64,000 nucleotides of DNA from NCBI RefSeq assembly GCF_058153355.1, contig NZ_CM177019.1; one strand, 5' to 3'. The position numbers and the translations under genes are program-made. Each line of letters begins with the position of its first letter. The stretch's first letter is position 1. Shown piece by piece: positions 6,773 through 9,454 of this stretch. The notes beneath the pieces are model-generated. The model had not been told where the DNA came from. It ran no database searches and saw nothing but the letters and a program-made list of their open reading frames with translations.

Positions 6773-6801
6773 GGAGGCGAAGGTGCCTCCCGTTTTATTT
6801 T
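6773..6801 (+). terminator. Intrinsic terminator of ompR-envZ
   Basis: ggaggcgaaggtgcctcc hairpin followed by cgttttatttt, 9 nt after the envZ stop. Confidence 0.8.
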
Positions 6802-6927
6802 GTGCACTCAGTATCTACTGAATGAATACGGTTTCAGACATCGGCACCATACGAAGTAAAGTGTACTGTAAGCTGATTGCAGGCTAGCGTATCCTGATTA
6901 GTAAAAGCACACTAAAGGAATAGCTTG

Positions 6928-8211
6928 ATGCAACTTACCAACGAAGAACAAGTACAGATTGCTCGTATAAAAGAAAAAATCCCACGCATTGCCGCACTGG
7001 ATCCTGAATGTAAGTTATTCGGTTCTGAAGGTTGGAAATATCAATGGCCGAAGCCTGCCAGCGAGGCGGAAATAGCTTCCTGGGAGAAAAAACATAGCGT
7101 CACTTTGCCACGGGAATATCGAATTTTTCTTCGCTATATCGCTAATGGCGGTCCGGCACATGCCTACGGTCTTGAATCTTTAGGCGGTACAGATATTTAT
7201 GGCGATATAACAAAAGAAAGCCCTGTACCGCTTTATATGACGCAGCAGGATGTTGATGTGTTGAATGCAGGCCGTACAGAAGATGATGAAGAATATAGTT
7301 TTTTTGACGGCGCATTGACCATTCTCACCCTGGGATGTACTTATGATATTTGCCTGGTGGTGACGGGGCAGTATCGCGGAAGGTTAATGCTGACTGATGG
7401 TGATGAAGATTATCCGTTTGATTTTATATATGATAAAAATTTCCTCAACTGGTATGAACGCTGGCTGGACGATTTTATTGCTGGCATGAGTATGAAGGGT
7501 TTCGATAGAAGTTTGCCAGGAACGCAAATTCAACTGCGTGAGTGGTTTTTAACTGAGAAAATCCCGGATTTACGTAGATCCATTTTATTCTCGCTATGCC
7601 GTTTTCCACAGATAGAACCCGAAACATTTGCCCTTTGGGAACATGTTTGCCGCACAGAGAATGATAAAGAATTGTGTGAAGAGGCATTCATAAGATTACG
7701 CCAAAAAAAAGTTTCTTGTGCTGCAGATATTTTTCGACTCTATTTTACAATGCCAGATGAATTACGTGATATTGCTATTAAAGATCTCCGTTTTGCCTGT
7801 AGAGATAGTGTGGTGAATATTGAGGATTATATTCATTCACTGTTAATAATAATGCCTGAACTTGACGATGACACTCTATCCTCAGCTGTCTTTGCTGTAC
7901 GAGAAACAGAGTATAATAAATATGATACTTTTCTGCCGCTTCTCGAACGTATCACTGATGACCGTCAGCAAACATTATTGTGGGCGATGAGTAAGGCGCC
8001 TGATTTCAATGAAAGCCGAGGATTCGTTGAGTTGGTATTACCGCTTTTTGCATCATCAAAGATGGAGAATGTAAGGAAGGCTATTTTGTTGCTCATTGAA
8101 GTTAAAGATAATCGTATTCCACCATTGGTTGATGAAGCTGCAACTCGTTTCCCTGAACTGACCATTTTACGAGAAAACTACTATCTCAGGACGTGGGGAC
8201 ATAAGCCATAA
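6928..8211 (+). CDS. Hypothetical protein with N-terminal SUKH/SMI1-KNR4-like domain and C-terminal alpha-helical (HEAT-like) repeat region; first gene of the AT-rich island
   Basis: Long ORF (427 aa from the ATG; the track starts 3 nt upstream at TTG). RBS aaggaa lies 7 nt upstream of the ATG. Motif SEAEIASWEKKHSVTLPREYRIFLRYIANGG resembles the SMI1/KNR4 (SUKH-1) signature. The C-terminal part, e.g. ENVRKAILLLIEVKDNRIPPLVDEA, looks HEAT-like. Not a K-12 gene that I recognise. Confidence 0.8.
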   Translation: MQLTNEEQVQIARIKEKIPRIAALDPECKLFGSEGWKYQWPKPASEAEIASWEKKHSVTLPREYRIFLRYIANGGPAHAYGLESLGGTDIYGDITKESPVPLYMTQQDVDVLNAGRTEDDEEYSFFDGALTILTLGCTYDICLVVTGQYRGRLMLTDGDEDYPFDFIYDKNFLNWYERWLDDFIAGMSMKGFDRSLPGTQIQLREWFLTEKIPDLRRSILFSLCRFPQIEPETFALWEHVCRTENDKELCEEAFIRLRQKKVSCAADIFRLYFTMPDELRDIAIKDLRFACRDSVVNIEDYIHSLLIIMPELDDDTLSSAVFAVRETEYNKYDTFLPLLERITDDRQQTLLWAMSKAPDFNESRGFVELVLPLFASSKMENVRKAILLLIEVKDNRIPPLVDEAATRFPELTILRENYYLRTWGHKP

Positions 8212-8248
8212 ATTAATGGCTCAGAAATGATCTAACGCGGAGAGAAAT

Positions 8249-8779
8249 ATGATCAGGGAACATATTCAGCAAGCGATAAATAATAGGTTAGCATTTGATG
8301 GCCCATTCAATGTTGTTCCTGAACCTGCAAGCACTGCGTTTGATAGCCGGATCCCGACATTGAAAAACGGTGTCTGGCAGAAGGCCAGCCCTATGTTGCA
8401 GGCGCGTTTTGCACATTGTGGACGTTGGTTAAGCGCTACACATGGAAGCTGGCTAAGTATAAGTGACATGGAAACGCTTTGGCAGGAACACATAGAAGAT
8501 ACGTTTCTTGATGAAATCAAAATGAATGCTGTAGCTTCAAGTGATAATTGGGATAACCATGCCTTGGGACTATTTCGTTCTCATCGCCTGTCACTTTTTG
8601 CCGGTAGTGATTACATTTATGAAATGGTTTTTCTCCTTTGGCTAGATAGTACCGTTGAGCCAGAGGTCTGGGTTTATGACTGCAATGGGGAATCACGTTA
8701 TAAAGATCTTAATGATTACCTGAATGCATATATTAATGATGACGTAAGCGCCTGTGAGCGCTCCTGGCGAGTAGAATGA
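8249..8779 (+). CDS. Hypothetical small soluble Trp-rich protein (island gene 2)
   Basis: 176-aa ORF with GGAGAG RBS 5 nt upstream, 37 bp after gene 1. No TM segment. No family recognised with confidence; the C-terminal VWVYDCNGESRYKDLNDYLNAYIND weakly recalls SUKH-type immunity folds. Confidence 0.75.
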   Translation: MIREHIQQAINNRLAFDGPFNVVPEPASTAFDSRIPTLKNGVWQKASPMLQARFAHCGRWLSATHGSWLSISDMETLWQEHIEDTFLDEIKMNAVASSDNWDNHALGLFRSHRLSLFAGSDYIYEMVFLLWLDSTVEPEVWVYDCNGESRYKDLNDYLNAYINDDVSACERSWRVE

Positions 8780-9402
8780 ATAGCCCCCCTTGCCCCTTTG
8801 ATCCACAAACCGCACATTACCTCGGTACAGTGCAAATCCACTACACCTCAACCACCTTCAACGCTGCCGTTAAGCATTATACCTATCACATTAAAAAGCG
8901 TTTTAAAGGGTTTAAATGGGGAATTGGTACCGCTGGCTTATTGGCTATATTGCCCATGATCCCACAATGGTTGAAACCTTCTCATGACTTTAAACTCAAC
9001 GCAATCAGTACGTTAATTCTTCTATTAATGTTGCCACTCCTCTTATCAATGTTCCTGTTAATCAGCAGAAGAATTAACGATTTTAAGTCAAAAACAAAGC
9101 AAGTTACTTTTACGAAACCCGTGCGTTATGCGTTTTATTTCGAGGGGATTGTTTTTTATGAATCTCATCAGCAGGGCATACTTCGCTGGGAAGATTTTTA
9201 TAGCATTGACTATGAAGAAGATTATTTGTGGCTTTTTCTGCATTTACCGAAGAGTTTTCCCAGAGAAGCGACGAAAGCGTTTTGCGATATTTTCATTCCC
9301 GCCAGCGCGATAAAAGCGCAGCCTGAACTGGATACGTTTTTTCGTGAAACACGCCACTATCTGGATTATCTGTTTGTCCCGTTTAATTCTGACAGAAAAT
9401 AA
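8776..9402 (+). CDS. Hypothetical inner-membrane protein (2 predicted TM helices) with C-terminal soluble domain (island gene 3)
   Basis: 208-aa ORF whose ATG overlaps the gene 2 stop (ATGA). Hydrophobic stretches WGIGTAGLLAILPMIPQWL (aa 48-66) and AISTLILLLMLPLLLSMFLLI (aa 76-96). The C-terminal ~110 aa are possibly YcxB-like/bacterial PH-like (unverified). Confidence 0.75.
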   Translation: MNSPPCPFDPQTAHYLGTVQIHYTSTTFNAAVKHYTYHIKKRFKGFKWGIGTAGLLAILPMIPQWLKPSHDFKLNAISTLILLLMLPLLLSMFLLISRRINDFKSKTKQVTFTKPVRYAFYFEGIVFYESHQQGILRWEDFYSIDYEEDYLWLFLHLPKSFPREATKAFCDIFIPASAIKAQPELDTFFRETRHYLDYLFVPFNSDRK

Positions 9403-9403
9403 A

Positions 9404-9437
9404 AAATCCCCCGTATCTGGTGAAACGGGGGATTTCG
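9404..9437. terminator. Intrinsic terminator shared by island gene 3 (+) and pck (-)
   Basis: aaaaaatcccccgt...acgggggatttcg hairpin with an A-run on one side giving a T-run on the minus strand; sits between the gene 3 stop (9402) and the pck stop (9455). Confidence 0.75.
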
Positions 9438-9454
9438 TCGCTTAACTTATCGGA

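Follow-up and report, generated by a model that had tools for sequence, protein, structure and literature searches.

Gene 2 in the envZ–pckA island

The window analysed in this study is a stretch of 64,000 nucleotides from an Escherichia chromosome (RefSeq assembly GCF_058153355.1, contig NZ_CM177019.1). The genes greB, ompR and envZ lie on one side of the locus of interest, and pckA, yhgE and hslO on the other. A block of three genes on the plus strand, here called genes 1, 2 and 3, separates envZ from pckA, which are convergent; the guanine-plus-cytosine (GC) content of this block is 0.39–0.44, compared with 0.52–0.58 in the flanks. We deal mainly with gene 2, which encodes a protein of 176 amino acids (aa), and with the family to which it belongs. 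Coordinates of gene 2 and the surrounding features are listed in Table 1.

In E. coli K-12, only 75 bp separate the stop codons of envZ and pck. When the two sequences were compared by blastn, homology between K-12 and the window stopped just after the envZ terminator hairpin and restarted at the pckA stop codon. The inserted island was found in 18 of 5426 complete E. coli genomes, with 99% identity and every time at envZ–pckA.

Table 1. Positions of gene 2 and of neighbouring features in the window
Feature	Coordinates	Strand	Basis
Gene 2, 176 aa, very probable orphan SUKH-fold immunity protein	8249–8779	+	Homologue context, fold, toxin missing from window
Shine-Dalgarno sequence GGAGAG, 4 nt before the gene-2 ATG	8239–8244	+	Read from sequence; identical in the E. 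albertii allele
ATGA, gene-2 stop overlapping gene-3 start	8776–8779	+	Kept in E. albertii, not in the L014/L015/L019 alleles
Inserted island relative to E. coli K-12, 2.6 kb	6797–9453	n/a	blastn of the K-12 envZ–pck region against the window; GC content
Island gene 1, 428 aa, N-terminal SUKH domain (residues ~44–170) and helical C-terminal region	6925–8211	+	Pfam
Island gene 3, 208 aa, predicted membrane protein, hydrophobic core at residues ~71–100, soluble C-terminal domain	8776–9402	+	Hydropathy
GC-rich hairpin (atcccccgt...acgggggat) in the spacer between gene 3 and the convergent pckA	9406–9433	n/a	Read from sequence; not called by a simple terminator scan

Gene 2 starts with ATG at 8249 and ends with TGA at 8777–8779. 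The original prediction, made from the nucleotide letters and a list of open reading frames (ORFs), described its product as a soluble, acidic and Trp-rich protein of 176 aa that could not be placed in a family, and this description holds. The protein has 8 Trp residues (4.5%), 26 Asp plus Glu against 14 Lys plus Arg, a calculated isoelectric point of 4.8 and no hydrophobic segment. With a Trp background of 1.5%, the probability of finding at least 8 Trp is about 0.005. Seven of the 8 Trp residues are conserved in at least 90% of 30 homologues; therefore, the Trp richness is a feature of the family and not a product of chance. All 35 family-invariant residues are present in gene 2. The ratio of nonsynonymous to synonymous substitution rates (dN/dS) is 0.07–0.43 between Escherichia alleles, and 0.07–0.10 when gene 2 is compared with a more distant allele. 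On these sequence comparisons, gene 2 can be regarded as a real gene under purifying selection.

Searches with gene 2 against Pfam (even at E<=10), NCBIfam and PADLOC gave no usable match. When 99 relatives were scanned against Pfam member by member, none matched at E<=0.001, and one grazed SUKH_5 at E=0.053. Sequence-based profile searches against solved structures yielded only chance-level matches (E>0.1).

A putative toxin domain encoded next to gene-2 homologues

A search of 5.8 billion proteins gave 34 homologue clusters with 48–98% identity to gene 2, all of about 175 aa. Their sources were E. albertii, Shigella/E. coli, Pectobacterium, Dickeya, Brenneria, Lonsdalea, Corticimicrobacter, Caulobacter and many metagenomes. 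An exhaustive profile search extended the family to 234 representatives at the 50%-identity level. The motifs IPTL, SPML..RF, W..ATHG.WL and LWLD...EPE.WVYD.NGESRY are invariant in the family. Among 100,044 species genomes that were scanned, the family was present in 20 species, which cover Enterobacterales, Pasteurellaceae, Burkholderiales, Azovibrio, Caulobacter, Bosea, a Rhodospirillales metagenome-assembled genome, Bacteroidales and Deferribacteraceae. Genes that are passed on horizontally typically show such a patchy distribution. A search for carriage on plasmids gave one partial match only, to a Sphingomonas plasmid, and thus no evidence of plasmid spread.

The genomic neighbourhood of the homologues pointed to a partner. 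In Pectobacterium parmentieri, the homologue (56% identity) begins 20 nt past the gene for a PAAR-RHS protein of 1423 aa, which belongs to an Hcp-VgrG-DcrB-Rhs cluster. The toxin tip, as we call the 126 residues after the DPxGL cleavage motif of this Rhs protein, served as a query across all loci collected. The same tip was found directly upstream of a gene-2 homologue in seven species of four orders, namely P. parmentieri, P. zantedeschiae, Lonsdalea iberica, Serratia rubidaea, Burkholderia (Caballeronia) turbans, Azovibrio restrictus and Aggregatibacter kilianii (loci L002, L020, L021, L024, L033, L034 and L035). Degraded toxin remnants lie upstream of the homologue in three further loci (L010–L012). 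The toxin tip is also fused to PT-HINT carriers, and its occurrence on both PAAR-Rhs and PT-HINT carriers looks, at the sequence level, like the behaviour of a polymorphic-toxin cassette.

The pair also occurs in E. coli, where 118 of the 5426 genomes, 70 of them at full coverage, gave a match when the toxin-immunity pair of Pectobacterium served as query in a distant DNA search. In strains M18 and KCJ3K291 the gene order is VgrG, a DcrB-related chaperone, a 1503-aa Rhs protein and a 176-aa 'hypothetical protein', the last of which is 54% identical to gene 2. The M18 Rhs protein is WP_049589778.1, and its 176-aa neighbour is WP_023155453.1. The gap between the toxin tip and the homologue is 9–23 nt in the seven species and in the 70 E. 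coli genomes. In eight pairs, the identity of the toxins (52–94%) and that of the immunity proteins (44–82%) track each other. The family to which gene 2 belongs is very probably the dedicated antidote of this one polymorphic-toxin C-terminal domain.

The E. coli Rhs loci are near yafC/dkgB (L040, 4913–9967, in M18; L041, 1826–9967, in KCJ3K291). In KCJ3K291 there is another Rhs copy, truncated at its N-terminus, which carries the same tip and is followed immediately by an identical immunity gene. The vgrG of M18 is disrupted by IS2, and the cluster is flanked by ISEc1 and a truncated dkgB.

The model of the toxin tip has a predicted local distance difference test (pLDDT) score of 92.3, and its best structural match is the His-Me-finger DNase NucB; the Serratia Rhs2 structure (PDB 9t38) is among its weak matches. 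The conserved residues of the tip are G81-H82, D85, W88-G-G and N104. According to the model and the alignment, the invariant G81-H82 close a beta-strand, and the near-invariant N104 is in the next helix. This layout corresponds in the model to the canonical beta-beta-alpha-metal arrangement, which has been set out for NucB and Smendo (PMC5758888). Zhang et al. (2012; PMC3482391) described Tox-NucA, a toxin domain of the HNH/EndoVII fold with the motif 'GH, N, N, E', which is carried on RHS repeats, has type VI secretion (T6SS) among its export routes and is paired with Imm-SUKH proteins. The toxin tip resembles both NucB/NucA and Tox-NucA in its beta-beta-alpha core, GH motif and helix Asn, and is likewise borne on Rhs/T6SS proteins and paired with a SUKH-type partner. 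Unlike NucB, it keeps the canonical His where NucB has Glu94 (PMC5758888), and it is invisible to Pfam. Searches of the tip against Pfam, including 25 single-member scans, and NCBIfam recognised no toxin family, and their sole matches were to the PT-HINT/RHS carrier parts upstream. The tip is thus predicted, from fold and motif, to be a NucB/NucA-like His-Me-finger DNase, and would be related to the NucA/NucB-type His-Me nucleases, though without a name of its own. In the main text of a survey of Pectobacterium Rhs proteins (bioRxiv 10.1101/2025.05.08.652813), a term search did not reveal this toxin-immunity pair.

Gene-2 homologues are also found apart from the toxin. In Bacteroidales, they are members of long co-directional arrays together with Imm19, Imm21, Imm32, Imm17, SMI1_KNR4/SUKH_6, DUF4304 and DUF4284 genes, and these arrays adjoin a tyrosine recombinase (Phage_integrase) gene. 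In Corticimicrobacter, the homologue abuts a SUKH_6 gene. The homologues of Caulobacter sp. 1776 and Brenneria are located amid housekeeping genes with no toxin nearby.

Two other contexts were observed. In Caulobacter sp. UNC279MFTsu5.1 (L028, 467–6444), the homologue is the third small ORF after a 1430-aa Rhs gene, whose encoded tip has no GHxPDVxWG motif; this suggests that the homologue is an orphan immunity gene which stands behind another Rhs toxin-immunity pair. In a JGI metagenome contig (L010, 1–16528), as in L011 and L012, the remnant that precedes the homologue is a decayed toxin tip. The surroundings of the homologue contain a long series of small co-directional ORFs without Pfam matches, mixed with Transposase_mut genes, and may form a large graveyard of orphan toxin/immunity genes from unknown families.

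Predicted SUKH fold and orphan status of gene 2

The AlphaFold2 model of gene 2 was built from 30 homologues and has a mean pLDDT of 73.7, with weaker values in the last 40 residues. The predicted alpha+beta fold matches the SUKH structures 3d5p, 5j1b, 2prv and 2icg. A Foldseek search against AFDB50 returned family members (46–51% identity) and then remoter proteins, nearly all of which are named SMI1/KNR4 or Knr4/Smi1-like (E 1e-16 to 1e-4). The original prediction had noticed a faint SUKH resemblance at the C-terminus; the resemblance is real and extends across the whole protein.

The SUKH superfamily is further characterized by a genomic link to polymorphic nuclease toxins or polyimmunity arrays, and the gene-2 family has this link as well. 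Like the Imm-SUKH proteins (PMC3113570; PMC3482391), for example YobK of B. subtilis (PDB 2prv), gene 2 is predicted to be a small, acidic and cytoplasmic alpha+beta protein, and its homologues follow directly after an HNH/EndoVII-type nuclease tip on Rhs proteins and are also present in toxin-free polyimmunity arrays. Unlike them, gene 2 and its 99 sampled relatives escape the Pfam SUKH and NCBIfam models and make up a family of their own, with about 234 clusters at 50% identity and distinct invariant motifs. Since no curated model (SMI1_KNR4 PF09346, SUKH_5 PF14567, SUKH_6 PF14568 or NCBIfam) detects gene 2, its membership in the SUKH superfamily rests on the fold and not on sequence models. 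The gene-2 family is thus modelled as a divergent, unnamed branch of SUKH.

A SUKH-like fold could also belong to a protein with another job, such as a regulator or an anti-phage defence component, which resembles immunity proteins in structure only. SUKH domains are known from non-immunity contexts, such as Smi1/Knr4 and FBXO3 (PMC3113570), and the homologues of Caulobacter sp. 1776 and Brenneria among housekeeping genes would suit such a protein. However, the tie to one toxin domain recurs across orders, homologues occur within arrays of recognised Imm families, and gene 2 has no match in PADLOC. We consider another job extremely unlikely.

Gene 2 itself stands without a toxin. The toxin tip and Rhs genes are absent from the 64-kb window. 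When gene 2 and the E. coli toxin tip were joined in one query (megablast, a single toxin allele), each of the 18 genomes with the island matched at the place of gene 2 only, and the 70 toxin-bearing E. coli genomes are disjoint from these 18. Because the toxin is found neither in the window nor in the island genomes, gene 2 is an orphan immunity gene. This distinguishes it from its relatives. Homologues in Pectobacterium, Azovibrio and E. coli hold the position of RhsI in VgrG-chaperone-Rhs-immunity clusters, as in the PAAR-Rhs systems of Dickeya dadantii (RhsA/RhsB) and Serratia (Rhs2); in E. coli and the seven species above, the homologue has the orientation of the toxin tip and comes immediately downstream of it. 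In contrast, the window gene 2 has no adjacent Rhs or toxin tip, is located at another site (envZ–pckA) and is 45–56% identical to the toxin-linked copies.

Gene 1 matched SMI1_KNR4 (E=2.7e-6) and SUKH_6 (E=3.4e-5) in Pfam, and in the 18 island-bearing E. coli genomes it is labelled 'SMI1/KNR4 family protein' in RefSeq. It appears from these matches to be the second immunity-type protein of the island, and the earlier suggestion that the island might encode two immunity-like proteins is borne out by the Pfam assignment of gene 1 and by the position of gene-2 homologues behind the toxin tip. Since gene 1 is a SUKH protein and the toxin is missing, the island is a small toxin-free polyimmunity locus. 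Genes 1 and 2 form a tandem of two co-directional immunity genes with no adjacent toxin, and the content of the site varies by strain.

Polyimmunity loci have been described as toxin-free (PMC3482391), and the orphan-immunity clusters called rAID-1 are linked to recombinases (bioRxiv 10.1101/471110). The island is like polyimmunity and AID clusters in its tandem co-directional immunity genes without toxin, its low GC content and its strain-variable content at one site. It differs from them in being tiny, with two recognisable immunity genes and a membrane gene, and its protective role is putative. No recombinase ORF, integron-like repeat or mobile-element gene was found among the ORFs and sequence between envZ and pckA in the window, whereas the Bacteroidales members of the family do adjoin Phage_integrase genes and match the rAID-1 layout.

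Taking these results together, gene 2 very probably encodes a cytoplasmic SUKH immunity protein whose family is the antidote of an Rhs- or PT-HINT-borne NucB-like nuclease; the window copy is an orphan in a small polyimmunity island that was acquired horizontally. The toxin domain would be delivered on PAAR-Rhs proteins via type VI secretion, and on PT-HINT carriers. By analogy with polymorphic toxin systems (PMC3113570; PMC3482391), the immunity protein would bind the incoming toxin domain one-to-one in the cytoplasm and block its nuclease activity. In this way gene 2 would shield the cell from neighbours armed with this class of toxin, some E. coli strains included, if the diverged window allele continues to protect.

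Several points weigh against this interpretation. Gene 2 is only 45–56% identical to every toxin-linked immunity protein, so that none of these pairs points to its own toxin variant, and cross-protection is putative. Rarity of the island (18/5426) and its decay in some lineages fit weak or intermittent selection. A megablast search with a single allele could miss a diverged toxin elsewhere in the 18 genomes. Finally, gene 2 lacks a SUKH sequence profile in Pfam and NCBIfam, where SUKH_5 was grazed by one of the 99 relatives at E=0.05.

Some of these points would also fit a decaying relic, which was left after loss of an Rhs toxin cassette and has no protective role now. The missing toxin and the rarity of the island suit a relic, and gene 2 is deleted or truncated in other lineages, gene 1 is split in E. 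albertii, and dN/dS is relaxed between the closest alleles (0.43, compared with 0.007 for envZ). However, a relic would not be expected to keep an intact ORF, a good Shine-Dalgarno sequence and every one of the family-invariant residues, or to show the low dN/dS seen against the more distant allele. Moreover, no Rhs remnant flanks gene 2, whose neighbour is an immunity-type gene and not a toxin scar, and orphan immunity genes are protective in other systems (bioRxiv 10.1101/471110). A relic is therefore unlikely, and a gene that still serves immunity is preferred.

Orphan immunity genes and polyimmunity loci are established concepts, and the biology proposed here is of the expected kind and opens no new question. 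What is new is the unnamed family pair and the observation of the envZ–pckA site. The pair joins the NucB-like nuclease tip of Rhs proteins to a SUKH immunity protein of divergent sequence, and both are missed by the current Pfam, NCBIfam and PADLOC. A function can thus be proposed for a 'hypothetical' protein of E. coli, E. albertii, Shigella, Pectobacterium and many gut Bacteroidales. The toxin is present in about 1–2% of complete E. coli genomes, so the island could sway strain-on-strain T6SS competition in the gut.

Gene 3 and the variable envZ–pckA site

The stop codon of gene 2 does overlap the start codon of gene 3 at 8776–8779, as had been noted. From this overlap a pair with fixed stoichiometry, such as toxin-antitoxin or effector-regulator, had been proposed, and the soluble gene-2 product would neutralise or regulate the gene-3 membrane protein. 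Gene 3 is a predicted membrane protein of no assigned function, the ATGA is present in the window and in E. albertii, and the two genes are at most 4 nt apart in every Escherichia allele, which makes co-transcription and coupled translation likely. The comparative evidence does not support such a pair. Gene-3 homologues were found only in Escherichia, Salmonella and one Enterobacteriaceae isolate (G50), always at envZ–pckA, whereas homologues of gene 2 occur in at least 13 other genera without gene 3.

Gene 3 also persists in the absence of gene 2. Strain A30 and the 346-aa alleles P0215, P0217 and P0218 have lost gene 2 and carry gene 3 as an in-frame fusion with a HEAT-like ORF. In Salmonella (L038), gene 3 follows two CdiI_5 immunity genes and there is no gene 2. 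In the isolate G50 (L039), an internally deleted remnant of gene 2 precedes an intact gene 3. Nor is the overlap conserved: the ATGA kept in E. albertii is replaced by TAG-tag-ATG in the 66%-identical Shigella/Escherichia allele (L014, L015 and L019), an outcome that the original prediction had named as refuting its own proposal. The conserved co-occurrence and coupling expected of a type II toxin-antitoxin or effector-regulator pair are thus absent, and the toxin-antitoxin reading of genes 2 and 3 was dropped on these comparative grounds. Because of the distribution of gene 3, its survival without gene 2 and the unconserved overlap, no antidote-toxin or fixed-stoichiometry pair is supported, and we regard such a coupled unit as very unlikely. 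Gene 2 is independent of gene 3; the two genes are probably co-transcribed and nothing more, and the ATGA overlap reflects the packing of operon genes at a junction prone to recombination.

Weak matches of gene 3 to MASE8 (0.016) and YcxB (1.9) in Pfam and to PycTM (E 0.006) in PADLOC lie on or beside its hydrophobic segment and are non-informative.

The contents of the envZ–pckA spacer vary by strain. The window type consists of the SUKH gene 1, gene 2 and gene 3, and the Shigella/E. coli type (L014) consists of a 142-aa HEAT-like ORF, a 66%-identical gene 2 and gene 3. Other strains have the fusion of the HEAT-like ORF with gene 3, or a gene-2 remnant and gene 3, and Salmonella (L038) has a 152-aa ORF, the two CdiI_5 genes and gene 3. 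Gene 3 is the sole constant member of these insertions, and K-12 carries none of them. The envZ–pckA spacer of Escherichia and Salmonella is thus a small variable orphan-immunity site. Between gene 2 and the Shigella-type allele, the synonymous divergence (dS) is saturated (3.3), while that of the flanking envZ is 0.38; therefore, the alleles at this site were swapped horizontally and did not diverge in place.

The constancy of gene 3 allows another idea, in which gene 3 is a membrane partner or docking module for interchangeable immunity modules that are translationally coupled or fused to it, and envZ–pckA serves Enterobacteriaceae as a dedicated 'landing pad' where cassettes are exchanged, for an immunity or sensing device tethered to the membrane. 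Three modes of coupling are seen at gene 3: the ATGA with gene 2, a gap of 3–4 nt after a diverged gene 2 or CdiI_5, and the in-frame HEAT-like fusion. If this idea is true, recombination breakpoints should lie within the first ~10–20 codons of gene 3. We consider it quite unlikely.

The first ~10–20 codons of gene 3 do differ by allele (window 8776–8830; L016, L014, L001, L038 and L039), and homology begins at FDPQT / ETAHYLG / QYLGTVQIHYT. The gene upstream of gene 3 is always overlapped with it, 3–4 nt away from it or fused to it in frame. The variable 5' end suggests, from the aligned alleles, a cassette-exchange breakpoint there.

A scan of the island for promoters and terminators gave sites no more numerous than in shuffled sequence, with no clear island promoter. 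The GC-rich hairpin behind gene 3 is a probable terminator that came with the island, and it likely stands in for the single hairpin shared by envZ and pck in K-12 as the terminator of pckA.

The E. albertii homologue of gene 1 is called as two ORFs of 295 and 132/133 aa, which overlap by 4–7 nt (L016, 6681–7963; L017, 5406–6688), compared with the intact 428-aa gene of E. coli. This suggests a frameshift, which may reflect either pseudogenisation or a programmed split. As the E. albertii copy is split or frameshifted, dN/dS of gene 1 against it is unreliable and was left unused.

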